A DNA stretch of 45,346 nucleotides from an uncultured Clostridiaceae bacterium (lineage in GTDB: Bacteria > Bacillota > Clostridia > Lutisporales > Lutisporaceae), in NCBI GenBank assembly GCA_964574195.1, contig CAZNMO010000009.1, positions 1 to 45,346 of the forward strand, read 5' to 3'. Position numbers and translations under genes: made by a program. The notes below the pieces were generated by a model that saw only the letters and a program-made list of their open reading frames with translations, was not told the origin of the DNA and made no database searches. Shown here in pieces: positions 1 through 32,394 of the stretch (its first letter is position 1; each line of letters starts with the position of its first letter).

Positions 1-343
1 TTAGTTTAGCATCTTTGTATATCGTAGCGTTGAATTGTCGTCCATCTTTTGAAAGAGACTTCTGCATTGGAGTAGCCCCAGTTATGTCTCTTTTCAAGAA
101 TTTCTTCCTGGCTTTCTTATATATGGACTTGTCAATGACATCCAGTTCACCTACACTATTACACACCAGGATTCCATCTGAACCAGCTTCCCCAAGGATT
201 TCATGCCGTTTACCGTTGGCTTGTATCATTAGAGCAACTTCAGTCCCTCCGATAGACTTATATACATCCATTACATACAACCAGTCTTCTTTTCTCCCGT
301 CGGACTGCGCTATATGTTTCGCAGATGTCCATAATACATCCAT
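1..343 (-). CDS. hypothetical protein (partial; C-terminus runs off the window start)
   Basis: ATG at 341-343 follows an AAGGGGGA SD just after the phoH stop. The frame stays open to position 1 (114 codons). Absent from the ORF track because there is no stop in the window. Confidence 0.55.
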   Translation of the reverse strand, partial: MDVLWTSAKHIAQSDGRKEDWLYVMDVYKSIGGTEVALMIQANGKRHEILGEAGSDGILVCNSVGELDVIDKSIYKKARKKFLKRDITGATPMQKSLSKDGRQFNATIYKDAKL

Positions 344-5153: not shown

Positions 5154-7739
5154 TTATGCCCCCAATATAGCTCTAATGTCAGACAAGGATAAACGCTCTG
5201 CAGATAAGTCTTGTTCCACGTTACCTTGAGCTGAACCAGCAGAACCTTTTCCAAGCAGCTCCTCGATAACTGATACTTTGATTCCTAGCTTTGAACGCTT
5301 TGTGTCCTCCACAGTGTTAGTGATAATCGGCGTTAAGAAGTTTGCGTGGTCGCTAGGTTGTCCCTGACGTAGTACACGCCCTTCACGTTGAGTGATAGAT
5401 TTTGGAACCCAAGGAACATCCAGGTGGATAAGTGTATGAGCGCCGTGTTGTAAGTTTACACCCTCTTCAGCAGCGTTTGTACATAACACAACTTGAATCT
5501 CTCCTGTTTTCATTTTATCCTGAACCTTTGTACGTTCTGCTGGTTTAACGTCCCCAGTAATGAAAGCAATCTTGGAAGCTTCAACCTTCTGGTCGATAAG
5601 TCCTTGACGAATTTTCTCTAATGGTAACTTCATATCACAGAATAGAACCATACCACGGTTTGCAGAATCCTTTAGGTGTTCCGTGATAGTGTTAACAGCC
5701 CACTCTTCTTTCGGATAAAGCTTTGACATATTGATTTTCGAACTATCTGTCTGTAACATATCTGGGTCAATCGCTACCTGTTCAAGGCGCTTCATCTTAG
5801 CAAGAATCATAGGAGCTGACGCCTTGATTCCAGCGTTCTCCATAGACTTGATTTCTGACAGAATGTTGTTCTGAATTGTTTGGTACATTTTGTACTGTTC
5901 TTTCGTCATTTCCAGATTGTACGTAGTGTGTCGCTCTTTCGGTAACTTAGAGTTTACATCTGAGCTGTTATGAGTTCTAATGAAAGCCACGTCGTGCATT
6001 TCAGCTTGTAGTTTGTCGAGATTCTTCAGCGCTACCGCTTTTGAGCCATATCCATCACTTTCCCATTCTACAAAACGGCGTCCAAAGTCTTTCGCCCAAG
6101 TGCCTACCTTGTCTGGACGCAAGTGGTGAAGAATATTGTATGTTTCTTTCGGCTGTCCATTTGGAAACGGCGTAGCTGTTAAGAACCACATATACTTAGC
6201 ATCTTTCCACGTTTCAGTAAACCCTTTAGTCTGTTGCGTGTTGTTTTTCAACTTGTGAGCCTCATCGCCTACAACGCAGTTTGGCGCTAACTTTTTAAGC
6301 TTCTTAGTGATTGTTGCTTTTCTCAACATTTCGTAGTTCACAATAATAACTTGTGCTTTCTCCGCTTCCTCCCAAGCCAGTTTCGCTTTGTTAACACTGT
6401 TCAGCGTGCTAGACTCAAGAACGCAAGCTTTCATATTCGAAAAGTTCTCAATTTCTTTCTTCCAGTTGAATTTAACAGAAGACGGCGCAACAACGATTGC
6501 CCTCTTGATTTCCTTGTTATTGATAAGCTCTCGTATAGCTGTGATAGCTGTTAGCGTTTTCCCTAAACCTACCGCAAGTCCAGCTATGGCTTTTCTGTTC
6601 TGTATAATGAATCGAACGCCCTTTTTCTGGTGGTCGTACAGACTCAACAAAGGGTTCATACCTTTCGGCATTTTGAAGTCGCTGATGTCTATGTCCTCGT
6701 TGTTCTTGATTCGCTCTATAGGCTTTAGTCCCTGAATTAAGTCTTTAACAAGTTTGTCTATGTTGGAAATCTTTTCCATAACTGCTTTGACAGTCGGCGC
6801 TATCTTGGCTGCTATCTCGAAGTTTCGGAACGCTGATGTAACATTTATCACTTCTTTAAAAGGAACGTACCATTTCTTTTCAGGCGTGTCGAACCTTGCA
6901 TTGAACTCTTTTATTTTCTCTTTGTCTCCAAAATTACTGTCCAACTTCACCCAGTTACCTGGACCAAATTCAGATTTTGGAGTTATATCAACTAGGCGGA
7001 TATGACCAGAAGCTATGTCCTCTTTACCCCAACTGTTTATAGTAGTCTTTACACCTTCCCCAACCACGAACGCACCATCCACTGTAGCTGTCTTCAGTCC
7101 CAGTTTCTGATAAAGTTGTTCAATCTTTGGAGCTGAACTTTTCGATTCAACAGGCTTTGTAATCTCGGTAGTTGTCAGAGTCTTTCCAGATATACTGTAA
7201 CCGCTTCCGCTTTCAAGTCGTTTTCCAATCGCCATAGCGCAGCGCATCCAGTCTACCTTTAGAGAGCTTCTGTCCCAAGTAATACCTTGTTTTACAGCGT
7301 CTTCCATTATGAATAATCGTTGTTCTGTTGTAAGCTTCTTACAAAAATCTTTGAACTCGTCTCTTGTTTTGAAGCTTCCTTCTACTCCAGCGCTCTGTTT
7401 AGGTTGAGCAGCTACCTTGTCAACTCCAGACTTGAAAGCTGGAAGAGAAAATGTTTCGCCGTTATTCAGGTGCTTCCCTATGGCCATAGCACATTGCATC
7501 CAAGTAGTTTTCCAAGCTGAAGTCTTTGGGAAGTGTATTCCTGACTGTTCGGCGTAGTCCATAACCTCTTGCCTTTGTTCAGTCGATAGCTTCTTACAGA
7601 AGTCTTTGAACTCAGCCTTATTCTGGAATGTTCTGATTGTACCGTACTTCTCAGCTTCCTGCTGTGGTACTTGGAATGTTTGAAGTTCAGGCTTCCCATT
7701 TTGATAAACGATTTTCTGTACAGTCACTAGGTTTGACAA
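5154..7739 (-). CDS. SNF2-family helicase/ATPase with duplicated N-terminal domain
   Basis: Motif I GLAVGLGKTLTAI, motif II GDEAHKLKN, and C-terminal helicase motifs LIHLDVPWVP..QREGRVLRQGQ. TTG start after GAGAGGTGA. Confidence 0.9.
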   Translation of the reverse strand: MSNLVTVQKIVYQNGKPELQTFQVPQQEAEKYGTIRTFQNKAEFKDFCKKLSTEQRQEVMDYAEQSGIHFPKTSAWKTTWMQCAMAIGKHLNNGETFSLPAFKSGVDKVAAQPKQSAGVEGSFKTRDEFKDFCKKLTTEQRLFIMEDAVKQGITWDRSSLKVDWMRCAMAIGKRLESGSGYSISGKTLTTTEITKPVESKSSAPKIEQLYQKLGLKTATVDGAFVVGEGVKTTINSWGKEDIASGHIRLVDITPKSEFGPGNWVKLDSNFGDKEKIKEFNARFDTPEKKWYVPFKEVINVTSAFRNFEIAAKIAPTVKAVMEKISNIDKLVKDLIQGLKPIERIKNNEDIDISDFKMPKGMNPLLSLYDHQKKGVRFIIQNRKAIAGLAVGLGKTLTAITAIRELINNKEIKRAIVVAPSSVKFNWKKEIENFSNMKACVLESSTLNSVNKAKLAWEEAEKAQVIIVNYEMLRKATITKKLKKLAPNCVVGDEAHKLKNNTQQTKGFTETWKDAKYMWFLTATPFPNGQPKETYNILHHLRPDKVGTWAKDFGRRFVEWESDGYGSKAVALKNLDKLQAEMHDVAFIRTHNSSDVNSKLPKERHTTYNLEMTKEQYKMYQTIQNNILSEIKSMENAGIKASAPMILAKMKRLEQVAIDPDMLQTDSSKINMSKLYPKEEWAVNTITEHLKDSANRGMVLFCDMKLPLEKIRQGLIDQKVEASKIAFITGDVKPAERTKVQDKMKTGEIQVVLCTNAAEEGVNLQHGAHTLIHLDVPWVPKSITQREGRVLRQGQPSDHANFLTPIITNTVEDTKRSKLGIKVSVIEELLGKGSAGSAQGNVEQDLSAERLSLSDIRAILGA
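7215..7613 (-). repeat. in-frame tandem duplication inside the SNF2 N-terminus
   Basis: aa 43-91 (EFKDFCKKLSTEQRQEVMDYAEQSGI..W..WMQCAMAIGKHL) against aa 128-175 (EFKDFCKKLTTEQRLFIMEDAVKQGI..W..WMRCAMAIGKRL). Confidence 0.85.
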
Positions 7740-7856
7740 GATTTTTCACCTCTCTCACTTATTTTTCCTTTGTTGTGGTATTGTTCCGTTCACTAGTCCC
7801 ATATAGCCGTTCTCCCTTTATTGTATACTTTACCGCTCAGGCTTATACCCTTGATA

Positions 7857-7888
7857 TAAATAAAGAGGGTGAATTGAAGTTCACTCCA
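7857..7888 (-). promoter_or_regulatory. class-II motif TGGAGT-N18-TTTATTTA
   Basis: In tandem with sigma-A promoter 7898-7926, upstream of the SNF2 gene. Confidence 0.45.
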
Positions 7889-7897
7889 ACTAGCTCA

Positions 7898-7926
7898 AGC
7901 ATATAGTAAATAATTACAACGGTCAA
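7898..7926 (-). promoter_or_regulatory. sigma-A-type promoter TTGACC-N17-TATGCT
   Basis: -35 at 7921-7926 followed by GTTGT, and -10 at 7898-7903. Lies upstream of the SNF2 gene. Confidence 0.55.
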
Positions 7927-7936
7927 GTGTTTTGGA

Positions 7937-7965
7937 CAAAATAAAGAGCCTGTTTTCACAGGCTC
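7937..7965 (-). terminator. rho-independent terminator
   Basis: GAGCCTG-tgaaaa-CAGGCTC followed by TTTATTTTG. The hairpin spans the stop codon. Confidence 0.6.
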
Positions 7966-8468
7966 AGTTCAGCATATAATTCATCGACTAACTTTTGGTC
8001 AACTACAGGCTCAGGAGCTTTGATTGCTTTACGCTCTGAAACTATAACGGGTTCAGCTTTCTTCTCTTCTTCAATGTCCAGGAACACTCCTGTTTCTTCA
8101 ATCGCTATGTGCGCCCGTGGAAGCCAACCTTCCCAAGTGACGTTGTTCATATTCTGTTTTAGCTCCTGATACCATTTGTCCAACATTTCTTTTGGCATAG
8201 GACTCTCGTGATAGTGTTTTCCGCACTCTGGTCCAATACCAACCAACAAGGACACTGGATGAGTCAGCTGTCTACCACAATGGAAACATACACCAGCTGG
8301 CTGTGGCTTTCCTTTCATCTTTACATATACGCCGTTGGGCGTCTCTTGAGTAATGTACCCAAACATAACTCGCATAGGCACAGGCGCTTTATCTCTGTAC
8401 TGCGGATTTGTACTTGGCTTTGTTAAGAATTGTCTAACACTGATTTTAAATTCCTTTACTCTTTTCAC
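7956..8468 (-). CDS. hypothetical Zn-binding protein (CxxC...GIGPxC motif)
   Basis: Motif CFHCGRQLTHPVSLLVGIGPECGK. Start moved to the GTG at 8466-8468, because the track N-terminus would overlap promoter 8503-8531 and the conserved RBS cassette. Confidence 0.6.
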   Translation of the reverse strand: MKRVKEFKISVRQFLTKPSTNPQYRDKAPVPMRVMFGYITQETPNGVYVKMKGKPQPAGVCFHCGRQLTHPVSLLVGIGPECGKHYHESPMPKEMLDKWYQELKQNMNNVTWEGWLPRAHIAIEETGVFLDIEEEKKAEPVIVSERKAIKAPEPVVDQKLVDELYAELSL

Positions 8469-12718: not shown

Positions 12719-13705
12719 TTACTTCTCTACAAATAGGACTTTGATAAACCCTTTCGCATAAGCGTCGTCAATCTTTGCTCCAGCAGCTCGTGGATGACCT
12801 CCACCGCCCATTTTCTGTGCGAATTCTCCAACGTGAACATCTTCCTTGATTCCTCGGAAGCTTATGGAGTTAGAACCAAAGTTCACCATAGCTATGAAGT
12901 CATACTCTGGATTTTCTGTGGCTAGTACATTCCCAAGCTCTGAGTGATACTGCTCTGCGAACACTACTCCAATGTGATAGCCGTGAGCGTCGATTGGAGT
13001 GATTTTGTCTTTGCGTGACTTGATGTACCGCTCCACTCGTTTGTTCTCCGTATCTACAAGAAGCTGCTCTGAACTTTTGAGGATTGCTTCTGGATTTTCA
13101 ACAAAGCGTTCCACAAATTTATATCGTCCAACAAGCATAAGTAGGTCGTTCAGTTGTTTTGGCAGCACTTGGTTGTACAAGTTGAACCACTCCCAAGTGT
13201 CATATCGTCGAATCTGTTCCACTAGGTCTACCAAACCATGGTCTATATCTTCAATCAACCCACAGTCGAACAGGTAATGGAAGAACAAACTTGTTCCGCT
13301 GGACATACGGTCTTCTCGGCTGTCAACGATACCAGGCAGCGCTTTCTCGTACACGTTCACAGAAGCCCAACCGTAGTCATTCAACCATTCTGCTGTAGCG
13401 TGATGGTCGATAAGCTGAACTTTGTCAGCGAAGCTTTCTTGAATCATGTCAGCTACTTCCTTATTCACAGAAATGTCTGTGATGAATACAGCGTCATAGT
13501 TCTCGTAGTCCTCTGACAACAAGAAGTTCTTCACCTTCTCGTCAATCTCGTTGTATCCGCAATACTCAACCTTACAACTGTCTCCAAACGTAACCTTACC
13601 AACGATAGCACAACCAACGCCGTCCAAGTCGTTGTGCGTGAATAACATCACTTTCAATGGTGTTCCTTCTTTCTCCTCGTTAGGGTTTTCCAAGAATATA
13701 GACAT
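12719..13705 (-). CDS. DHH/DHHA1-family phosphoesterase (NrnA-like)
   Basis: Motifs HNDLDGVGC, FITDIS, LIDHHAT and GGGHPRAAG. ATG at 13703-13705 (alternative 13711). Confidence 0.8.
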   Translation of the reverse strand: MSIFLENPNEEKEGTPLKVMLFTHNDLDGVGCAIVGKVTFGDSCKVEYCGYNEIDEKVKNFLLSEDYENYDAVFITDISVNKEVADMIQESFADKVQLIDHHATAEWLNDYGWASVNVYEKALPGIVDSREDRMSSGTSLFFHYLFDCGLIEDIDHGLVDLVEQIRRYDTWEWFNLYNQVLPKQLNDLLMLVGRYKFVERFVENPEAILKSSEQLLVDTENKRVERYIKSRKDKITPIDAHGYHIGVVFAEQYHSELGNVLATENPEYDFIAMVNFGSNSISFRGIKEDVHVGEFAQKMGGGGHPRAAGAKIDDAYAKGFIKVLFVEK

Positions 13706-13731
13706 ATTCATTCCTCCTTTTTATTTACAGA

Positions 13732-13843: not shown

Positions 13844-14434
13844 TCATATGAAACTCTGCCCTAACTCTACAAATGGGTGACGGTTGAAACGACTAGTAAG
13901 CAAGAACTTCAGGAAGCAAGTATGAGCGTGTGCTGCAGGCATAGTGCCACTAGCAAGTATGCTTCCAAACTCTCTGAAAGGCTTCTCAACCACAGTTATC
14001 GCTTCATCGTGGTCTAGTATCTGTGGTTCAGCAACGCCTTTGACTTCAGCGTAGAAGTAGTGAACAAGCTCGTTTGTGAAGCCCATAGATGAATAAGCTG
14101 CTCCCAGGTCTTCAATAACAGTAGGCGTGAATCCAGTTTCTTCTCGCACCTCACGAATCGCTGCTGACATTGGTAGTTCATTTGGGTTGATTCCGCCTGC
14201 TGGAAGTCCTAAACTGTACCCGTTTGCCCCAGTTCGGTACTCATGACACAACACAATTGTGTCATTAGTCGTATTCTTAATCATAACAACCACACAAGGA
14301 GCTTTCCTCACCAAGTCTCGGTTGATTAAGAGGTCTTTTGGCTCTGAAGACTTGAGTAATATATCCAGTTTGTCCACAGAAAATACTGGACCATCATATA
14401 CAGTTTCATTCTTGATTATTTTACTATGCGTCAT
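13844..14434 (-). CDS. Nudix hydrolase, NudF-like ADP-ribose pyrophosphatase
   Basis: Nudix box GGINPNELPMSAAIREVREETGF, followed by SSMGFTNE (compare SPGFTDE in ADPRases). Confidence 0.8.
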   Translation of the reverse strand: MTHSKIIKNETVYDGPVFSVDKLDILLKSSEPKDLLINRDLVRKAPCVVVMIKNTTNDTIVLCHEYRTGANGYSLGLPAGGINPNELPMSAAIREVREETGFTPTVIEDLGAAYSSMGFTNELVHYFYAEVKGVAEPQILDHDEAITVVEKPFREFGSILASGTMPAAHAHTCFLKFLLTSRFNRHPFVELGQSFI

Positions 14435-14688
14435 TATTTTGTTCCCCCGTCGATTATTATTGTTTTTGGTTGTCTTTTAAAGACTTTTGACACAGCAATT
14501 GGCTCTTTCTTAGTTTCTCCTATAGAGTACCTTGTGTCGTATGTGTCATCCTCTGAATTGTATTTCAATATATCTGTTTCTATGAAATAGATACCGCCGT
14601 GCTCATTAATGTGTTCAGCAACCACGTTGAAAGCTTCCTCCAACGTGGGCTGTTTGGGAGCGTACTTCTTTCTCATACGCTTATTCAC
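14434..14688 (-). CDS. hypothetical protein
   Basis: GTG at 14686-14688 lies 9 nt after AAGGAGG. It overlaps the sigma stop by 8 nt and abuts the Nudix start. Confidence 0.5.
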   Translation of the reverse strand: MNKRMRKKYAPKQPTLEEAFNVVAEHINEHGGIYFIETDILKYNSEDDTYDTRYSIGETKKEPIAVSKVFKRQPKTIIIDGGTK

Positions 14689-16042
14689 AGGCTGCTGCCT
14701 CCTTAGACTTGATTTGCACAAAGAATGTTACATCTTCTGCTTCATATATGCCGAACATTTCCACCATCTTTGAGAACTCGGACACAAGTTGGTCTGAACT
14801 TTTGGCTTCTCCTTTCAGAGTGAAGTTCACAACTTGTGCACTACTCTTTGACTTTTCCAAAGGCGGTATTGGAGCGCCAACCCATTCTAGTGATGAAGTT
14901 TCCTTTGGTTCTGGAAGTGCAACTTCAGCTCCTAGTTGTGGAACAGTCTCGGTTACTTCCTCAAGAGTAACATGCGTTTTCGGCTCTGGTTTAGGCAGTT
15001 CTTCCAAGATTTTCTTGCCCTCTTCCAATCGTTTGTTCTTGACCTCTGGCTCTGGCGCTGGTTTTGGTTTTGTTGTAACCTTTGGTTCAGCCTTTGGTGA
15101 TGCTGTATTCTTGGACTTGCTTTGTGTTTTTCTTGGATTCTTTTTAGGTTTTGCATCCACACCAATCGTCTTTCCTCGGATATTCAACCCATGATACGCA
15201 ACAGTTGCGTATGACACCCCAGTTTCAGCAGATATGTCTTTGTAGCTCATTTCTGTGTCCCTGATTAGTCTTTTTGCTTCTTCAACCATTTCTTTGTGTG
15301 ACAATTCGTCTTCCTCCCTTTTCTGGTACTCAAGATACTTTTCGCCAATTTTCTTCAGTATTCGACTGACCTGGACTTGGGTCACGCCTATCTGTTCAGC
15401 TATTGCTGACTGTGTCAAACCTTCCATAACTCCTTGAATCACCGTTTGGTCTTTTTCAGAAAGCGTGTCCAAGAAGTCGTTCACAAACATAAAAGTGTGG
15501 TCGTCACGTGAAGAAAGCGTGTCCCCAATCGTTATGGAGTCTGTGTCATCCTTCCCTCCCGTAGGTGTTTCTGTGGAAGTCGCTCTGGAGAAATAAATGT
15601 AATCAAATCCATCCTCCGCATAGTTTATTGGCACATCAAGAATCTTTGCCACTTCCTCTGGAGTCTTGTCTTCAAGCTCTCCATGGATAATCTTGTAAGC
15701 TGTCTCTTTGGCGTTTCGTGAAAACTTAGCGCCTGGGTTGTGGTCTCGAATCAGTCTCAGGATTTCCCCTTTAATCATTGGAACTGCATATGTTGAGAAT
15801 TTTACGCCGTTACCGCTTGTGCCTTTAAAAGCCGTTGGGTCAAACCGTTCGTATGCTTTAACGAATCCCATAAACCCACATTGTACTATGTCTTCATAGT
15901 CCATACCGTTCGCTTCAGCTCGGCTGGCATACCGTTTGGTAACATGATAAATCAATCTTTCGTTTTCTGCTAAGTATTCATCCAAGTCTCCAAGATGCGG
16001 GTTGAATTTTACCCGTTTAACTTTTTCTGCCGTTCTTCCCAT
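14681..16042 (-). CDS. sigma-70-family RNA polymerase sigma factor with ~200-aa C-terminal extension
   Basis: Region 2 is DIVQCGFMGFVKAYERFDP..FSTYAVPMIKGEILRLIRD. Region 4 is LSEKDQTVIQGVMEGLTQSAIAEQIGVTQVQVSRILKK. ATG at 16040-16042 after GAGGGGAG. Confidence 0.85.
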   Translation of the reverse strand: MGRTAEKVKRVKFNPHLGDLDEYLAENERLIYHVTKRYASRAEANGMDYEDIVQCGFMGFVKAYERFDPTAFKGTSGNGVKFSTYAVPMIKGEILRLIRDHNPGAKFSRNAKETAYKIIHGELEDKTPEEVAKILDVPINYAEDGFDYIYFSRATSTETPTGGKDDTDSITIGDTLSSRDDHTFMFVNDFLDTLSEKDQTVIQGVMEGLTQSAIAEQIGVTQVQVSRILKKIGEKYLEYQKREEDELSHKEMVEEAKRLIRDTEMSYKDISAETGVSYATVAYHGLNIRGKTIGVDAKPKKNPRKTQSKSKNTASPKAEPKVTTKPKPAPEPEVKNKRLEEGKKILEELPKPEPKTHVTLEEVTETVPQLGAEVALPEPKETSSLEWVGAPIPPLEKSKSSAQVVNFTLKGEAKSSDQLVSEFSKMVEMFGIYEAEDVTFFVQIKSKEAAACE

Positions 16043-16084
16043 GGTCACTTTGTCTCCCCTCTCGCTCTTATGAGTCATCTGCAA

Positions 16085-16659: not shown

Positions 16660-18312
16660 CTATAGGAAGTCAAAGTTGAACTCTTGTTTTGGCTGGTAAA
16701 TGCCTTTTATTTTCTCGACTCCAATAAGAGCGTAAACCAGACATGAACTCCAGTGGTCGTCGCCTATTCTGGTTGCAACCTGGTAAACTATGCCATTTTC
16801 CTCCTCGTCCATGATACGAACGTTCTTCATATGCTTTGTGAACACCATCAGGTCGTCGTCCATCTTCCACATTCCAATCCCTCTAGCCTTCACAGTGTGA
16901 AGCATACGTTGTACCTTCACTGTTTTATCCACGCTGATTAACCTTGAAGCGTCGTTCCAGCTATCTTGTGGCTTGGACTTCCCTTTGTAAGTATTGTATT
17001 GGCAAGCCCAAGTACGTCCAGGGAATAGCTGCATCAGGTATGTGTTACGGTCTGCCCCAAATCCAGCATCGGCTATGATTAAGTCTGGGTCATACGGTGT
17101 AATGCTAGCAGCGATAAGCCCCACGGGTTCTAATGGCTTCTGCGGGTTATCCTTGAACATGAACAAGTTTAGGAGGTCAACGTGACCGCCCTCTTTTATC
17201 CCCAAAACAACTACCCAGTTACGCACACCCCAGTCAATTCCCACTACAACTTTCTGGTAGTCCTGACGTGAGTGAATCCGTTTCTCGAAGCGTTGAGATG
17301 CCAAAATATCATCTTCTGTAATAACTAAACCTTCAGCTGCAAAAGGCTCTCCAACTACGTAGTTATAGAACAGTTGCTTGGATGTATAAGTCAGCTCGTT
17401 GCGTTTTACTCGGTCAGCGCTAATCCACACGGCATTCAACTGAGAAATGTGGTATCCCCTGATACCTGTTCGACTCGGATGCTTGGCCACCCATTCCCCA
17501 TTATACCATCTGTCTATTGGTTTGGAGCACTTAGCACAAACAAATCCAAATGTACCATCGGCTACCTCATTTGTAAGTAAGTCAACGCCGTCAGCTTTAT
17601 ACTGGAAAATGTTGTCCTCAACGTTCAAAATCTGCCATTCGTTACAAGCTTCACATTTATGCATATAGAATCGTTGGTCAGAGTTTCTGAACTGCGCATC
17701 CACTCCACGTCCTGGAATCGTTGGAGTTGACCAACGGCGTAACCAACCAAATTCTGAAGATTTCATGGACTCTTGGAACGCAAATTCAATGTTGTCCTGC
17801 ATTCGGTCATACTCGTCAAACGCTAGGAAGTCAATGTCCGCACCCTCACCCATAGCTCCGCCCCAAGCTGAACGGAACATCATGAAGCTGTCTCTGATAC
17901 GCTTTACTTCAATAGAATCCATCTTTGTGTCTAGGATAGACTTGAAGTATTCATTGCTTTCAAATACAGGATTCATACGAGTTTTAACAAAGTCGGTCAT
18001 TTGTCTCGCACGTGGGAACGTATACATCAGCTTTGTGTTATTGTGGAAATCGCTGAACCAGATGGCTTCCGCTACCCCCATCTCAGATAGTCCAAGCTGA
18101 CGGGACTTGCGGACAACCTTATCAGGGTGATGGTCGTCAACTATATCAACCTGCCAAGGACGGTGAGCACGTGCTCTCTTCTCATTCCTGTCAAGTATAG
18201 AGAACGTCAAAGGCTTGTTTCTAATTGTGTAGTGATTAAGTAAATACAGAGACGGCGTAGCTCTGACTATATAATCCATAAACTCTTTGCTATTTAAAGA
18301 CTCGTTAGTCAT
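16660..18312 (-). CDS. terL: terminase large subunit (GpA-like)
   Basis: P-loop-like KSRQLGLSE (compare lambda gpA KSARVGYS and T4 gp17 SRQLGKT) and Walker B DIDFLAFDEYD. Central Cys pairs CEACN..CAKCS, and a nuclease-like VVVGIDWG..IIADAGFG. Confidence 0.75.
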   Translation of the reverse strand: MTNESLNSKEFMDYIVRATPSLYLLNHYTIRNKPLTFSILDRNEKRARAHRPWQVDIVDDHHPDKVVRKSRQLGLSEMGVAEAIWFSDFHNNTKLMYTFPRARQMTDFVKTRMNPVFESNEYFKSILDTKMDSIEVKRIRDSFMMFRSAWGGAMGEGADIDFLAFDEYDRMQDNIEFAFQESMKSSEFGWLRRWSTPTIPGRGVDAQFRNSDQRFYMHKCEACNEWQILNVEDNIFQYKADGVDLLTNEVADGTFGFVCAKCSKPIDRWYNGEWVAKHPSRTGIRGYHISQLNAVWISADRVKRNELTYTSKQLFYNYVVGEPFAAEGLVITEDDILASQRFEKRIHSRQDYQKVVVGIDWGVRNWVVVLGIKEGGHVDLLNLFMFKDNPQKPLEPVGLIAASITPYDPDLIIADAGFGADRNTYLMQLFPGRTWACQYNTYKGKSKPQDSWNDASRLISVDKTVKVQRMLHTVKARGIGMWKMDDDLMVFTKHMKNVRIMDEEENGIVYQVATRIGDDHWSSCLVYALIGVEKIKGIYQPKQEFNFDFL

Positions 18313-21949: not shown

Positions 21950-22447
21950 TTAAGCTCTCGCAAGTCTCCATAGCACATCACGGTTCTTCTCCACTACCTC
22001 TTTGAGGTAGGCTTTTCGCCCAACTCTGTGTAGCGTGAGAATCTCATTTTTGTTCTCGTCCTCCGTATGGACAGTCACAAAGCCCTCCAAGTATTTCTTG
22101 TAATCAACATATTTGTCAGGCACCATAATCTCAGGAGCGTATGTGAGGAATCTGTACCATATTAAGTCCAGAAGTTTGTTCTGTTCATGGAACTCCTCTC
22201 TTGGCTCTGAAATAATGAGCGTTCCGTTGTCCTTCAGCAATCTCTTGAACTCTCCAAACAACAAAGGCAAGTCCGCTTCAGGTATGTGATGTATAACGTT
22301 TCTACAGTGGATAACATCGCAGGACTTGTCTTCCAAATCCAACACCCTGTAGTCCTTTATGAAGTAGTCGTACCCTGGAGCGCCACAGAAGTCTGAAGAC
22401 TTGAAGCCTTTCTTGGGCTTGCTCCCTGAACCGTAATCCAAGTTCAT
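21950..22447 (-). CDS. class I SAM-dependent methyltransferase (substrate unknown)
   Basis: LDYGSGSKP (motif I-like), DVIHCRNVIHHI and RLLKDNGTLIISEP (Methyltransf_11-like). Confidence 0.65.
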   Translation of the reverse strand: MNLDYGSGSKPKKGFKSSDFCGAPGYDYFIKDYRVLDLEDKSCDVIHCRNVIHHIPEADLPLLFGEFKRLLKDNGTLIISEPREEFHEQNKLLDLIWYRFLTYAPEIMVPDKYVDYKKYLEGFVTVHTEDENKNEILTLHRVGRKAYLKEVVEKNRDVLWRLARA

Positions 22448-22919: not shown

Positions 22920-23135
22920 TTATTTTATTACCCTGTAATCGTCCTCACCGTGGACTAGTCCAAGTTTACTTCCAGTATCCCAGTCTACATGAAGCGTTCC
23001 CATGTCGTCTACGAAAGCCACAGTTCCTTTCGTTCCTGGTTTCAAATGTGTGTATGGGTCTTTCATTTCCACAAGCTCAACCCGTTTCCCTTCTAATGCT
23101 CTTAATGCCTCTACTACTGTGTGTCTGTTTTTCAT
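22920..23135 (-). CDS. DUF4314-like protein
   Basis: GTKGTVAFVDDMGTLHVDWDTGSKLGLVHGEDDY matches the DUF4314 pattern from memory. Start fixed by the conserved cassette RBS. Confidence 0.55.
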   Translation of the reverse strand: MKNRHTVVEALRALEGKRVELVEMKDPYTHLKPGTKGTVAFVDDMGTLHVDWDTGSKLGLVHGEDDYRVIK

Positions 23136-23190
23136 TTTTACCGCTCCTATTCTTCTTGGTATTTTGTAAGCGTTTCTCACTTACAAGTTA

Positions 23191-23219
23191 ATCATAACCG
23201 ATATGTGCACAACCGTCAA
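23191..23219 (-). promoter_or_regulatory. cassette promoter TTGACG-N17-TATGAT
   Basis: About 51 bp are identical to the copy at 34525-34575. Confidence 0.7.
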
Positions 23220-23242
23220 CTGTTTTTATGAAACTTTTTCAC

Positions 23243-23270
23243 AAAAAGAAAAGCCAGCCAAACGGCTGAC
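23243..23270 (-). terminator. rho-independent terminator
   Basis: GTCAGCC-gttt-GGCTGGC followed by TTTTCTTTTTG. Confidence 0.65.
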
Positions 23271-24071
23271 TCACACAGTCCTTCCAAAGTATGTTCTAAC
23301 GTCTCTAATATGTTCTGGTAAAATAAGGACTTCTTTTTCACCACGAGCATCAAGATATGTTATAATTTTGTCCACGTAAACCTCCGCTTCATGTAACTTT
23401 CCATAGTCCGCAAACCTTGAAGCAAAGAATTGTGCCTTTTCTTTGTCTAACGTCCAAGAATACGCTTTATCCAAAGGAGAACTTTTGCTCTGAGTACCTC
23501 GGTACACAGTCACGTAGTTCTCTGTGTCAGGGAATCGGTATCTAAACGGCTTCCATTCAGCGTCCTTGAATCTTGTCTCGAATACCTTTCGCATAAAATC
23601 TGGGTCTTGGTCGGCAAAACCATACTCACCCATCACATAAACTTCCTCGAATATAGAGAACTTCTCATTGTCTGGAATCAAATCAAACAACTCTCGGTAC
23701 AATCGGAATCGCACACGCTTGTCTTGTAAACAGATAAATGAGTCATAATCTCTGTCCTCCAACATACGTCCAAAGCGCTCCCTTTGTCTCTTGAAGGATT
23801 CAATTTCATGTTGGAATATCATGTTGTCTGGGTCGGCTTGCGTCAACCCCATAATGTTGAAAGCGTAGAAAACCAAATCTTTGTAGTACACAAGTGGGTT
23901 TATTATAGAACCTTGGTTCAGATAGAATCCGTCTGGGTCAGCTTCCAGTAGCTCGCAGACCTCATCAAAGTTGTCTGGTCGTAGCTCTGGGTGTTCTCCC
24001 AGGTTCTGAAGCTTATCAAAGTCTAGCTCCCCGTGTAAATCCTGGAATATTTGGTTTGTAAAGTTGCTCAA
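23271..24071 (-). CDS. putative ADP-ribosyltransferase (R-S-ExE type C-terminal domain)
   Basis: C-terminal triad VTVYRG ... YSWT ... GEKEVLILP (compare VIP2 EKEILL and iota GEYEVLL). TTG start after the cassette RBS AAAAGGAGAGGTTAAA. Confidence 0.45.
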   Translation of the reverse strand: MSNFTNQIFQDLHGELDFDKLQNLGEHPELRPDNFDEVCELLEADPDGFYLNQGSIINPLVYYKDLVFYAFNIMGLTQADPDNMIFQHEIESFKRQRERFGRMLEDRDYDSFICLQDKRVRFRLYRELFDLIPDNEKFSIFEEVYVMGEYGFADQDPDFMRKVFETRFKDAEWKPFRYRFPDTENYVTVYRGTQSKSSPLDKAYSWTLDKEKAQFFASRFADYGKLHEAEVYVDKIITYLDARGEKEVLILPEHIRDVRTYFGRTV

Positions 24072-24112
24072 TTTAACCTCTCCTTTTGTTCTCAGTTGGT
24101 CTTACAAGAACA

Positions 24113-24141
24113 ATCATATAATAAATGGAGACAACCGTCAA
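24113..24141 (-). promoter_or_regulatory. cassette promoter TTGACG-N17-TATGAT
   Basis: Near-identical to the 24923-24951 copy. Drives the ART-like gene. Confidence 0.7.
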
Positions 24142-24204
24142 GTGTTTTCTTCAAAATAAAAAGGAACGGTTTTCACCGCTCCTTCTTGTTTTATATTGTC
24201 GCCA

Positions 24205-24378
24205 CTAGGCGTTCTTGTAACTGGACTCAGATGTTCTAGTGCTTTCTTGACGAGATAATAACCCACGCTGTTCTCTCTCTGTCGGTTCTTTCTGTTCCTC
24301 AATGAAGTTCACTGCGTGAAAAGTTATTACACTCAAGATAAAGATTCCAGATACGATACCAAAAATCATCGCTGCCAT
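24205..24378 (-). CDS. small membrane protein (57 aa), not in ORF track
   Basis: ATG at 24376-24378 after GGGAGGTAA. Has an N-terminal TM. Own promoter at 24458-24486. Confidence 0.5.
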   Translation of the reverse strand: MAAMIFGIVSGIFILSVITFHAVNFIEEQKEPTEREQRGLLSRQESTRTSESSYKNA

Positions 24379-24457
24379 GTTATTACCTCCCGTTTTTATT
24401 GTGATAATTTTGTTTCCTATATCTCGCTAGAAAGTAAAATACTTCCTTACAATACAT

Positions 24458-24486
24458 AGCATAAACTATCTCAATGCAACAGGCAA
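24458..24486 (-). promoter_or_regulatory. sigma-A-type promoter TTGCCT-N17-TATGCT
   Basis: -35 at 24481-24486 followed by GTTG, and -10 at 24458-24463. Confidence 0.45.
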
Positions 24487-24511
24487 GCTTTTTCTCTTAA
24501 AATTTTGAAAC

Positions 24512-24545
24512 AAAATAAAAAGAAGGAGCTTTTACAAGCTCCTTC
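24512..24545 (-). terminator. rho-independent terminator
   Basis: GAAGGAGCTT-gtaa-AAGCTCCTTC followed by TTTTTATTTTG. Confidence 0.75.
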
Positions 24546-24547
24546 CA

Positions 24548-24871
24548 TTATTCTCCCAAGCCTTTTATCATCCAATCTTTTTCATACCATTCTCTATCGG
24601 CTTTTATAATGTTGTATCCTAACTCGTTTATTCTATCCTCAATTATGTGAATGTAGTCGCTCTCCAGAACTTCCTTCACTTCCGTCGGCAGAATCTCTCG
24701 ACTAAAGAAAATATGCTCCATAGCTTCAAATCCGTGCTTGAAACCCGTTTCCCAAAGTCGTCCGTATACTCCAAGCCCTCTCTCGTGGACTAACTCAAAC
24801 CCCTCGCCCACATTCTCGTTCTGTAAAGTCAACCAAAACCCACTTACTGCTACAATCGTTTTCTTTCCCAT
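24548..24871 (-). CDS. hypothetical protein
   Basis: Cassette promoter 24923-24951 upstream and terminator 24512-24545 downstream. Confidence 0.65.
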   Translation of the reverse strand: MGKKTIVAVSGFWLTLQNENVGEGFELVHERGLGVYGRLWETGFKHGFEAMEHIFFSREILPTEVKEVLESDYIHIIEDRINELGYNIIKADREWYEKDWMIKGLGE

Positions 24872-25639: not shown

Positions 25640-25668
25640 ATCATATAGTATCTCAACCCAACGGTCAA
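25640..25668 (-). promoter_or_regulatory. cassette promoter TTGACC-N17-TATGAT
   Basis: -35 at 25663-25668 and -10 at 25640-25645. Confidence 0.65.
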
Positions 25669-29491: not shown

Positions 29492-29520
29492 ATCATATAA
29501 TAGTTCAAACCAACCGTCAA
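29492..29520 (-). promoter_or_regulatory. cassette promoter TTGACG-N17-TATGAT
   Basis: -35 at 29515-29520 and -10 at 29492-29497. Confidence 0.7.
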
Positions 29521-30040: not shown

Positions 30041-30300
30041 TTACCTTTCGTGTAAAGCTTCATCCACACAGACTCAATAGCCATTCCAGAGAGGTTTAAA
30101 AGTTGATATGGTCTGTATCCCTTATGTTTAGATTCCACAACAACTACAGCGTTCTTGTGTCTCTCTATTATAATTGATTCCCATTGTTTGTAAGCTTTCG
30201 CATTTGGAGGGCAGGCTGGCTCGTAACATACGAATGTCGAACCAGGCTCACTCTGAATAACCTCCAGTAACGTACATTTGTCTCCGTCATTGATAATCAT
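30037..30300 (-). CDS. hypothetical protein
   Basis: Overlaps the nadR 3' end by 14 nt and lies in the same coupled string. Confidence 0.55.
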   Translation of the reverse strand: MIINDGDKCTLLEVIQSEPGSTFVCYEPACPPNAKAYKQWESIIIERHKNAVVVVESKHKGYRPYQLLNLSGMAIESVWMKLYTKGK

Positions 30301-31333
30301 AATTCTGTTCCACCGCTTTCTTGAGTAACTCTGCTGACGCTGATTTCGCTATCTCCCAACGTTCATCCCAAGTACCTTTTACATCAACCCATTTCACGCC
30401 ACGTGCTGTAAGTTCTGCCTTGAACTTCTCGAACACCTCATAACGATTGTCTTCAAATGTACGGCTTCCATCTTGAACCCAGGGAACGTCAGGATGACAC
30501 AATAATGTGAGGTCGTATTGCTCTTCATTGGCCAATCGCTCAACGAACTCGTCAACCTTCCCATATAGAAGCTCAGAGAATATCTTTGTAGTCAAATGGT
30601 CGGTGTCTATGAACAAGAGCTTGTCTGTATTGAAGTATGAAGCCATTACATCGATGTAATATCGGTGTCCCTCGGCTATTTGTACCAGGTCTTCATATCT
30701 GAACTCATTCATATTGTTGTTATAGGCTTCCTCTATGTAAGTCCGCCCGTACTCGTTTACATATTCTGTGTTAAACTCTTCAGCTAGTCTCTTGGTAAGC
30801 TCAGATTTGCCACAGCTCTCTCCACCTATAATGCGAACTTTCTTGATAAAGTACGGTCTAGCTGCCTCGCTGATGAAGTCCCATTCACCGTGTGGGTCTT
30901 GTCGGCACTGAGTACCGCTGATTGGGACTCTCTCACGCTCTAAATCCACCATATGATGCTCCGCTCCGAACAATTCTGCAAGTTCGTACCCATACATTTC
31001 AGAAGAAAACACAACGTCTATGGGTTCTGGGTGGTTTTTCTTGATTAAATCGTGCCAGATAGTCCAGAAATTTGTGTCTTCAGACGGTTCTTGTGGAACT
31101 ACCTTGTCATAATGGATGACTCTCACGCTCTTAGGTGGCTTTTTCATAGTCATAATCATAGAGCGCACAGATTTCCACATCCATCTGTATCGTTCTTCAC
31201 CTGGAATCGGTTCAGTTGGAAGACTGCACACAAGTATAGTCAACATATCGCAGTTCTCCAACCCAGTTTTTACAAGATACTCGTGACCTGTGTGTAACGG
31301 CATGAACTTCCCTAGTATTAATCCATGTTTCAT
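30287..31333 (-). CDS. nadR: NadR-type bifunctional NMN adenylyltransferase / ribosylnicotinamide kinase (no HTH domain)
   Basis: NMNAT motifs GKFMPLHTGH and ISGTQCR. Kinase Walker A GGESCGKS and Walker B LLFIDTD. Confidence 0.9.
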   Translation of the reverse strand: MKHGLILGKFMPLHTGHEYLVKTGLENCDMLTILVCSLPTEPIPGEERYRWMWKSVRSMIMTMKKPPKSVRVIHYDKVVPQEPSEDTNFWTIWHDLIKKNHPEPIDVVFSSEMYGYELAELFGAEHHMVDLERERVPISGTQCRQDPHGEWDFISEAARPYFIKKVRIIGGESCGKSELTKRLAEEFNTEYVNEYGRTYIEEAYNNNMNEFRYEDLVQIAEGHRYYIDVMASYFNTDKLLFIDTDHLTTKIFSELLYGKVDEFVERLANEEQYDLTLLCHPDVPWVQDGSRTFEDNRYEVFEKFKAELTARGVKWVDVKGTWDERWEIAKSASAELLKKAVEQNYDYQ

Positions 31334-31646: not shown

Positions 31647-31759
31647 TTCTCTTCCTCCTTGTCTCCTCGTTTAGGGAAAGTCATTTTTGGACAACACTTC
31701 TCTGCATCCTTCCAAGATAAATGTTTATTTCCGCACACCCTACAGATACATGTTGTCAT
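31643..31759 (-). CDS. small Cys-rich protein (38 aa), not in ORF track
   Basis: Peptide MTTCICRVCGNKH..EKCCPK. ATGA overlaps with the pnuC stop and the next start. Confidence 0.45.
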   Translation of the reverse strand: MTTCICRVCGNKHLSWKDAEKCCPKMTFPKRGDKEEEK

Positions 31760-32394
31760 AGTCCGTTCTCCGCTTCATATTCTTTCTTCCAAGCAATATA
31801 ACCATACACAGCGTTCGCCAAGAAGAATACATAAGTCAGAGCGACAATGTGAAGGTCTTTATACATATACATTCCGATAGATAGTACATCAATCGCAATC
31901 CATAACAACCAGTTCTCAAGGACTTTCTTACCCATAAAGAACTGCGCTACAACGGACATAGAAGCTACAAAAGCGTCAAGATACGGTATGGAAGCATTTG
32001 TGAAGTTGTGTAGACTTCCTCCCCACACAATCGTGATAGCTAGGATAACAGGAAGCAATAGAACCCATTCACGGGTTGTCATAACTCTCGTAGGTCGTAC
32101 AGGCTGCCCTTCTCGCTTAGTCAACCATATGAACCAACCATACAACGATAGTACAAAGAAGACAATCTGTAGTCCAGCATCAGCGTACAACTGGACGTTA
32201 TAGAACATATACACGTAGCATACTATGTTGACCAGTCCAACTGGATAAGTCCACACGTTCCTTTTCGCTGCTAGCCATACACAAAGCAGACCAGATATTG
32301 CCGATAATATTTCGATAGGTGAGGAGCTGGTAAAGTAGGCTACCGCTCCAAACACCGCTACTATGAATGAGTTTAAAAGGATTTTGTTTGTCAT
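31756..32394 (-). CDS. pnuC: nicotinamide riboside transporter PnuC
   Basis: Polytopic, 212 aa. AKRNVWTYPVGLVNIVCYVYMFY..LYADAGLQIVFFVLSLYGWFIW matches PnuC signatures. Confidence 0.85.
   Translation of the reverse strand: MTNKILLNSFIVAVFGAVAYFTSSSPIEILSAISGLLCVWLAAKRNVWTYPVGLVNIVCYVYMFYNVQLYADAGLQIVFFVLSLYGWFIWLTKREGQPVRPTRVMTTREWVLLLPVILAITIVWGGSLHNFTNASIPYLDAFVASMSVVAQFFMGKKVLENWLLWIAIDVLSIGMYMYKDLHIVALTYVFFLANAVYGYIAWKKEYEAENGL

Follow-up and report, generated by a model that had tools for sequence, protein, structure and literature searches.

What does the product of the open reading frame (ORF) at positions 23,271 to 24,071, on the minus strand of a 45,346-nucleotide stretch of DNA (the window), do for the SPO1-like Lysinibacillus phage that encodes it? 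The original prediction had seen in this ORF an R-S-ExE ADP-ribosyltransferase (ART)-like C terminus, and this was supported by motif conservation, by a structural model, by the list of nearest structures in the Protein Data Bank (PDB) and by profile alignment to ModA and ModB of phage T4. The most conserved residues of the family and the predicted fold match those of ARTs that use nicotinamide adenine dinucleotide (NAD+), and the protein probably tags a host molecule early in infection. The gene product is probably a catalytically intact and very compact member of the R-S-ExE ART superfamily, as predicted from alignment and model. An active NAD+-using enzyme with the ART fold is likely; for the whole statement, a compact R-S-ExE ART that would serve early host takeover by modifying a host protein, the probability was put at roughly 0.45. 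Since the fold class and the chemistry are well known, the protein does not represent a novel kind of system but extends the ART superfamily by one new member at family level.

The protein has the same sequence as WAB25307.1 of phage vB_LfM_LysYB2, and the window was ~99% identical to the Lysinibacillus phages vB_LfM_LysYB1/YB2 (Herelleviridae, Spounavirinae) over the 2.5 kb compared. The identical protein was labeled "mRNA catabolic process" by the depositors of OP628075.1 and OP628076.1, a label for which no search made here gave support or explanation; no paper mentioning the LysYB phages was found in a literature search. The three motifs first read in the C-terminal part, VTVYRG, YSWT and GEKEVLILP, were confirmed at residues 187–192, 204–207 and 244–252, with the triad lying within the last 80 residues, and the distance from R191 to S205 was measured as 14 residues in place of the ~17 first estimated. 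A hidden Markov model (HMM) of the family matched this ORF with 274 bits (E = 1.9e-83), and this was the only family copy in the window.

A triad in one sequence is of little information; invariance across a family of aligned sequences is what counts. Homologues were collected by exhaustive HMMER search with a three-sequence profile and counted as cluster representatives at E ≤0.001, which gave 3,873 representatives, 1,047 of them at ≤1e-10. Conservation was scored in an alignment of 88 homologues of 230–300 amino acids that shared 23–48% identity with the window protein, with a mean column identity of 26%. Only G192, W206, E245 and E247 were invariant, while Y190, S205, T207, A213, F216, R219, F220, P133, F141, E149 and F152 were conserved in at least 90%. 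In Y190-R191-G192, which corresponds to the aromatic-R-[GS] of strand 1 that is a trait of the R-S-E clade, Y was found in 83 of 88 homologues, R in 76, H in 12 and G in all; in S205-W206-T207, the S-x-S/T motif, S was found in 87, W in 88 and T in 80, the other 8 having S at position 207. Both glutamates of the ExE motif, one of them the putative catalytic residue, were present in all 88, and the 12 His-191 variants retained SWT and ExE. The resulting signature, [YF]-[RH]-G ... S-W-[TS] ... R-x-E-x-E, matches the ART catalytic triad in order and local context, as judged from the conservation pattern including the R/H alternation. Alternation of Arg and His at the first motif position is a hallmark of the ART superfamily and separates its two large clades. 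The other conserved basic residues of the family are K118, R219 and R243.

A first model from 3 sequences was too poor for use (predicted local distance difference test [pLDDT] 65), while AlphaFold2 with the 88-sequence alignment gave a pLDDT of 93.7 and a predicted template modeling score (pTM) of 0.90. In this model the core, residues 186–262, consists of six strands and one helix (Table 1), and shows the arrangement that characterizes ARTs at the level of the fold: Arg or His on strand 1, Ser or Tyr on strand 2 with a helix after it, and, beyond a loop, a strand further on that starts at the catalytic Glu. The ~180 residues upstream had originally been described as an N-terminal domain with no recognized motif; of these, only residues ~1–91 are variable, and residues ~92–180 are a conserved helical part of the family core. 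Matches found by tblastn in ~100 mycobacteriophages (including LeBron, Faith1, Corndog and Catdawg) and in Gordonia phage Octobien14, all annotated as hypothetical, begin at residue ~85–104. From these start positions the conserved core was placed at ~92–260, and the helical segment was assigned to the same module as the beta core, as in ModA and ModB.

When the whole, uncropped model was compared with the PDB using Foldseek, the top 26 matches were Tpt1/KptA, the catalytic domains of PARP1/2/12/13, or Yersinia CNFy, the last through what we take to be its ART-like domain. ART-fold chains thus occupied the top of the list and no competing fold appeared in it, but none of these matches was significant (E 0.11–1.5). 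Against viral models the only strong match was an uncharacterized Gordonia phage protein (E = 2e-10), itself a family member by tblastn; among the weaker matches were polyvalent proteins of large size, WWE/ART proteins of Bodo saltans virus and a mycobacteriophage protein that bears the name ADP-ribosyltransferase.

T4 Alt, ModA and ModB are phage ADP-ribosyltransferases used for host takeover. ModA and ModB (PF26816), likewise small phage early proteins, have the same order of parts, N-terminal helices followed by a beta core with [WY]-R-G, S-x-[ST] and E-x-E, and were the one known family that profile-profile alignment picked up, every motif being in register, though at low probability. Aligned singly to T4 ModA and T4 ModB with hhalign, the family gave E 0.03–0.04 at low probability, with YRG paired to WRG/YRG and SWT to SaS/SfT. 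In a permissive hhalign run against eight sequences, T4 ModA and ModB together with six ModB homologues carrying Pfam PF26816, query residues 123–263 were aligned to ModB 6–188 with the three motifs in register, residues 123–180 falling on the ModB N-terminal helices and the ExE part pairing as RnE.EVLV against dEqEwMiP. The score was 24.7 (P = 0.0065, probability 5.8%); shuffling the columns of the Mod alignment 100 times yielded 13.6 ± 2.6 and at most 22.1, so that no shuffle reached 24.7, and the reversed alignment gave 14.5. The window protein differs from ModA and ModB in ~90 extra N-terminal residues, in the additional conserved K118, E149-Y-G-F, R219 and R243, and in the host clade of the phage.

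The short motifs and the small beta core could instead be convergent, in a protein that is not an ART and has an unrelated binding or enzymatic function, and several results weigh on that side and against the ART assignment. Sequence comparison gave no ART: a Pfam scan of the window protein returned nothing at E up to 10, searches of Pfam, NCBIfam and PADLOC with the protein and up to 88 homologues returned no ART or other informative family, the PF26816 model gave no hmmscan match to the protein, and a PDB sequence search returned chance matches only (prolyl endopeptidase FAP, E = 0.16), with no match by profile. The Foldseek PDB search likewise gave no match at E 0.001, the best being 0.11 with template modeling scores of ~0.2–0.3, and the nearest structures belong to the H-H-h (Tpt1) and H-Y-E (PARP) clades, not to C3/VIP2/iota. 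Motif spacing is atypical and far tighter than in ModA and ModB (R to S, 14 versus 24–26 residues; S to E, 40 versus 67–72), R and S in the R-S-E clade being usually tens of residues apart with helices in between, and the hhalign probability against Mod is low, at 1–6%. A VIP2/Alt-like set drawn from actinophage contigs also aligned with its motifs in register, but the score (16–17) fell short of significance. Against a non-ART protein stand the motif residues, which surpass all others in conservation across the thousands of family members, the R/H alternation, the ART chains at the top of a Foldseek list with no competing fold, and a three-motif ModA/ModB alignment that beats all 100 shuffles; on balance such a protein was judged improbable, and the ART reading was kept.

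The C3/VIP2/iota/Alt toxins (Pfam ADPrib_exo_Tox) have the same Arg / Ser-x-Thr / Glu-x-Glu triad, in contexts such as E-K-E-V-L-[IL], but none was among the top 50 Foldseek PDB matches listed, and the core of the window protein is far more compact. ARTs of VIP2/Alt-like type with the motifs LYR, STT and EKEVLLPRG were seen in actinophage contigs (5362–6150 on contig L203 and related IMG/VR loci, 21 of 120 loci), and since they co-occur with the present family in part of the IMG/VR loci, some phages encode two different ART-like proteins. Many of the loci that carry a canonical-looking R-S-ExE ART also contain a MuF-type head-morphogenesis gene.

The early-type promoter, the TTG start, the own terminator and the single-gene organization that had been claimed for the ORF were all found in the sequence. 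The gene was confirmed as a monocistronic unit with sigma-A-type signals: it has a promoter of this type to itself, its ribosome-binding site is strong, and the terminator is intrinsic. The terminator RNA folds with −14.2 kcal/mol (z = −2.9), and the next cassette promoter lies beyond it at 23219. The promoter belongs to a cassette, TTGACGGTTGT, that occurs 11 times in the window at ≤1 mismatch against 0.79 expected, every time on the minus strand. Alignment of twelve copies (these 11 and the copy at 25668; −35 starts at 7926, 8531, 10878, 16624, 23219, 24141, 24951, 25668, 29520, 34562, 34972 and 35457) showed conservation beyond the hexamers, aaaACAc-TTGACG-GTTGT-N12-TATGAT-t..CTTGTAAG; the cassette thus extends to a downstream CTTGTAAG box. 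By its sequence the twelve-copy cassette looks like the early-promoter class of the phage, and it is from this promoter type that the "early" timing of the gene was deduced. Contigs of a soil metatranscriptome span the interior of the ORF and the next gene (23002–23172) but not the intergenic spacers, the parts of the window concerned being 23183–23269 and 24053–24835; they are a weak sign of RNA from the gene, as carry-over of DNA is possible. In metagenome contigs from two DNA runs a junction of 24933 to 23210 was seen that resembled a deletion of the gene. It was rejected as a repeat artefact, because the 8 letters that bridge it (GTTCAAAC, reverse complement GTTTGAAC) agree with the spacer in a third copy of the promoter, at 29520. 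An Rfam search of the window gave no match.

The gene would be transcribed by host RNA polymerase immediately after infection, and the product, if it is such an enzyme, would bind NAD+ through R191 on strand 1 and S205-x-T207 on strand 2. E247, with E245, would then activate the nicotinamide-ribose bond, and ADP-ribose would be transferred to a host macromolecule. The target, the weakest step, would most likely be an arginine on a protein of host transcription or translation, modified for takeover as by the T4 early enzymes ModA and ModB. The NadR-like and PnuC genes of the phage could sustain the NAD+ pool. A slight lean toward an arginine on a host protein was based on the ExE motif, on ModA and ModB being the only detectable relatives and on the early-gene setting; a nucleic acid or a nucleotide as acceptor is nearly as likely.

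In the latter case ART-like chemistry would be directed at a phosphate or base of RNA, DNA or a nucleotide, for the healing or repair of RNA ends or as an anti-defense. The protein might remove or ADP-ribosylate a terminal phosphate in an NAD+-dependent, Tpt1/KptA-like manner, or act like the ARTs of nucleic acids, and might have phosphoesterases and RNA ligases, for example RtcB, as its partners. As a complete account this was considered somewhat unlikely, and the evidence bearing on it comes from structure, gene neighborhoods and domain fusions. Tpt1/KptA were the best PDB structural neighbors (E 0.11–0.5, 93–101 aligned columns, 20–21% identity to Aeropyrum Tpt1, not significant) and also have a small, minimal ART core. 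The catalytic tetrad of Tpt1, an enzyme with a two-lobe RNA/NAD architecture, is R-H-R-R, and this set is not conserved in the window family, which keeps R/H-S-ExE. The conserved K118, R219 and R243 suggest a phosphate-rich substrate.

Some relatives adjoin RNA ligase genes. The closest (41–48% identity; three SPO1-like contigs, effectively one lineage) have the order DUF4314-YodL-homologue-small ORF-RtcB, and another homologue is divergent to a gene for a kinase-phosphatase-Rnl1 (Pnkp-Rnl1) fusion. The YodL-like gene lies upstream of the homologue, and DUF4314 slightly further upstream, in contigs L012 and L225; in the window a DUF4314 gene is instead downstream of the ORF, and RtcB is missing. 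Against this reading, RtcB ligation requires no removal of a 2′-phosphate. The window contains neither RtcB nor Pnkp-Rnl1, lacks an HD domain like the fused one and a kinase of that sort, carries no tRNA and has no RNA-repair neighbor. A scan of IMG/VR for DNA patterns yielded 120 loci, 111 of them with a family member, in 32 groups at 50% identity. No conserved partner was found in these 32 groups, where only integrases, methylases and Dps recur, RtcB turns up in one group, at a distance of ~10 kb, and three groups have a tRNA within 3 kb. The proteins encoded upstream in jumbo-type and in actinophage contigs were unrelated to each other.

Fusions were counted in the 152 best matches, 53 of which are of at least 328 amino acids. 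A C-terminal HD domain was found in 41 of these 53 long homologues with a custom HMM (37 by Pfam HD), a P-loop kinase-like region in three, followed in two by an NT5C/HAD phosphatase, and a minimal SLOG domain in one. Full-length HD-fused genes are standalone and chromosomal in ~19 Syntrophomonadaceae genomes, with variable housekeeping neighbors (betaine ABC transporter, TrkH, MFS/HlyD/TetR, GGDEF), and HD fusions were also present in IMG/VR contigs; their occurrence in both settings favors a nucleic-acid or nucleotide substrate. Together with the RtcB and Pnkp-Rnl1 neighbors and the conserved basic residues, the HD, kinase and phosphatase fusions weigh against a protein target. The fused HD domain looks like a generic HD/HD-GYP phosphodiesterase domain, as its best PDB match was to an HD-GYP phosphodiesterase (E = 2.5e-4); a very weak match was to lpg1496 (E = 0.5). 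SidE effectors join an R-S-ExE-type mono-ART module to a metal-dependent phosphodiesterase-like domain, and by analogy the HD-fused forms might carry out a two-step reaction of ADP-ribosylation and phosphodiester cleavage. This likeness concerns the HD-fused homologues only; the domain order differs, the matches are weak and the window protein has no HD domain.

PHROG 4776, of "unknown function", matched the window protein at residues 92–258 (E = 4e-18). Its members, LeBron gp117 among them, are true family members with the same motifs but are annotated "hypothetical" or "NKF" (no known function). LeBron gp117 is a clear case (hhalign 99.4%, E = 1.7e-21) and contains VYRG, SWT and RGESE. Its gene (4758–5495 on contig L224) lies ~0.5 kb from about ten tRNA genes (5993–8432), and other LeBron genes specify a polynucleotide kinase, a Ro-like protein and an RNA ligase, which again fits action on RNA, as does a Macro "Appr-1-p processing" gene of the related genome OP628076.1 (39939–40451, outside the window). 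A word-indexed homologue search returned only 3–7 proteins and no functional names. The family appears to be without annotation in every library and record checked, very large, unusually compact in its core and distinctive in its fusions. Taken further, the protein would be a founding member of an unnamed, very widespread ART-like family, with thousands of clusters in phages, polyvalent proteins and Syntrophomonadaceae chromosomes, and a functional R-S-ExE analogue of Tpt1/KptA on phosphate-bearing RNA or DNA ends or nucleotides, a proposal judged unlikely; in it, the protein would take part in RNA repair or counter-defense alongside RtcB or Rnl1 ligases and the HD, kinase or HAD phosphoesterase domains that are often fused to it.

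The protein might instead be no transferase but act on NAD+ itself: as a glycohydrolase or processor of NAD derivatives it would deplete or reshape the NAD+/ADP-ribose pool, serving as a toxin or countering NAD-based host immunity. Many ART-fold proteins are NADases. The NAD/ADP-ribose theme that the original prediction had seen in the window is plausible from gene content: NadR-like, PnuC, NUDIX and DHH genes are indeed present, and a Macro gene is found elsewhere in the related genome. These genes, however, are 6–10 kb off, in other transcription units and separately organized, and no link to the ORF was found. A strictly conserved ExE with its upstream loop is more typical of transferases. 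Overexpression of LeBron gp117 (pham 1206) in M. smegmatis was scored 1, no known function, with a mild reduction in colony size (PMC13148394); the clone gave pink colonies without inducer, which its authors read as an internal promoter (PMC13148394). By analogy, so mild an effect is easier to reconcile with a specific modifier than with a toxin that destroys NAD+ in general, and because of it a plain NADase toxin is disfavored; NAD+ consumption or processing as the main activity was considered very improbable. A specific transferase, with its slight lean to a host protein, remained the preferred reading.

Elsewhere in the window, genes for an SNF2-family helicase, a sigma-70-region-2 protein, the terminase large subunit and a small S-adenosylmethionine (SAM)-methyltransferase are interspersed among many small cassette-driven genes. 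Because of the cassette-driven genes around it, the late-type terminase gene stands in the middle of an early-looking region.

Table 1. Positions of the gene, its signals, the parts of the predicted protein and other genes. Numbers are window positions unless residues or another contig are named.
Feature	Position	Strand	Description	Basis
Coding sequence	23271..24071	minus	266 amino acids, TTG start, TGA stop	ORF list; exact protein on OP628076.1
Sigma-A-type promoter	24113..24141	minus	−35 TTGACG 24141-24136, 17-nt spacer, −10 TATGAT 24118-24113	consensus scan, 10/12 matches
Ribosome-binding site	24077..24086	minus	AAAGGAGAGG, 5 nt upstream of TTG	read from sequence
Intrinsic terminator	23241..23272	minus	9-bp stem (23272-23251), GUUU loop, U-rich tail UUUUCUUUUU; overlaps stop codon	terminator scan
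Residues 1-91	23799..24071	minus	variable N-terminal region (helices and small beta-hairpin), absent or different in many homologues	low conservation, model, tblastn
Residues 92-180	23532..23798	minus	conserved helical subdomain of family core (D117-K118, I132-P133, F141, Y145, E149-Y-G-F152)	conservation, model helices, hhalign
Residues 186-262	23286..23516	minus	compact ART-like beta core	AlphaFold2 model (pLDDT 93.7, pTM 0.90), Foldseek PDB list
R191 codon (Y-R-G)	23499..23501	minus	predicted NAD-binding Arg; His in 12/88 homologues	alignment; pairs with ModA R72, ModB R73
S205-W206-T207 codons	23451..23459	minus	S-x-S/T motif on strand 2	alignment; pairs with ModA SaS, ModB SfT
E245-K246-E247 codons	23331..23339	minus	ExE at loop/start of strand 5, after conserved R243	alignment; pairs with ModA/ModB E-Q-E
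Helices and small hairpin	residues 1-71			model
Helical region	residues 84-179			model
Strand	residues 186-193		ends in YRG	model
Strand	residues 205-207		carries SWT	model
Helix	residues 210-218			model
Strands	residues 225-232 and 236-240			model
Loop	residues 241-246		holds R243 and E245	model
Strand	residues 247-250		begins at E247	model
Strand	residues 256-262		last strand	model
Closest-relative locus	L012 8001-10412		homologue, one small ORF, RtcB	
Closest-relative locus	L099 34-2399		homologue, one small ORF, RtcB	
Closest-relative locus	L225 909-3540		homologue, one small ORF, RtcB	
NadR-like gene	30287-31333	minus	AAA_28 E 1.5e-35, weak nucleotidyltransferase-like N terminus	
PnuC	31756-32394	minus	nicotinamide-mononucleotide transporter, E 8.7e-60	
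NUDIX hydrolase	13844-14434	minus		
DHH/DHHA1 phosphoesterase	12719-13711	minus		
SNF2-family helicase	5154-7739	minus	861 amino acids	
Sigma-70-region-2 protein	14681-16084	minus		
Terminase large subunit	16660-18312	minus		
Small SAM-methyltransferase	21950-22447	minus		

If the protein is active, a large unlabeled family would join the known phage ADP-ribosyltransferases, one whose members are listed as "hypothetical" or "no known function" in >100 sequenced phages and which is absent from Pfam, NCBIfam and PADLOC. In practice, the finding lets thousands of database entries be re-annotated as "ART-like, predicted". The compact core, which spans ~56 residues from Arg to catalytic Glu, would count among the smallest modules of R-S-ExE type. 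Through the recurrent fusions to HD, kinase and phosphatase domains and through the RNA-ligase neighbors, ADP-ribosylation can be tied in a testable way to RNA or nucleotide processing, and a branch directed at nucleic acids or nucleotides, if true, would be considerably more interesting. For the SPO1-like phages of Bacillales, an active enzyme would supply a counterpart of the T4 takeover enzymes Alt, ModA and ModB.

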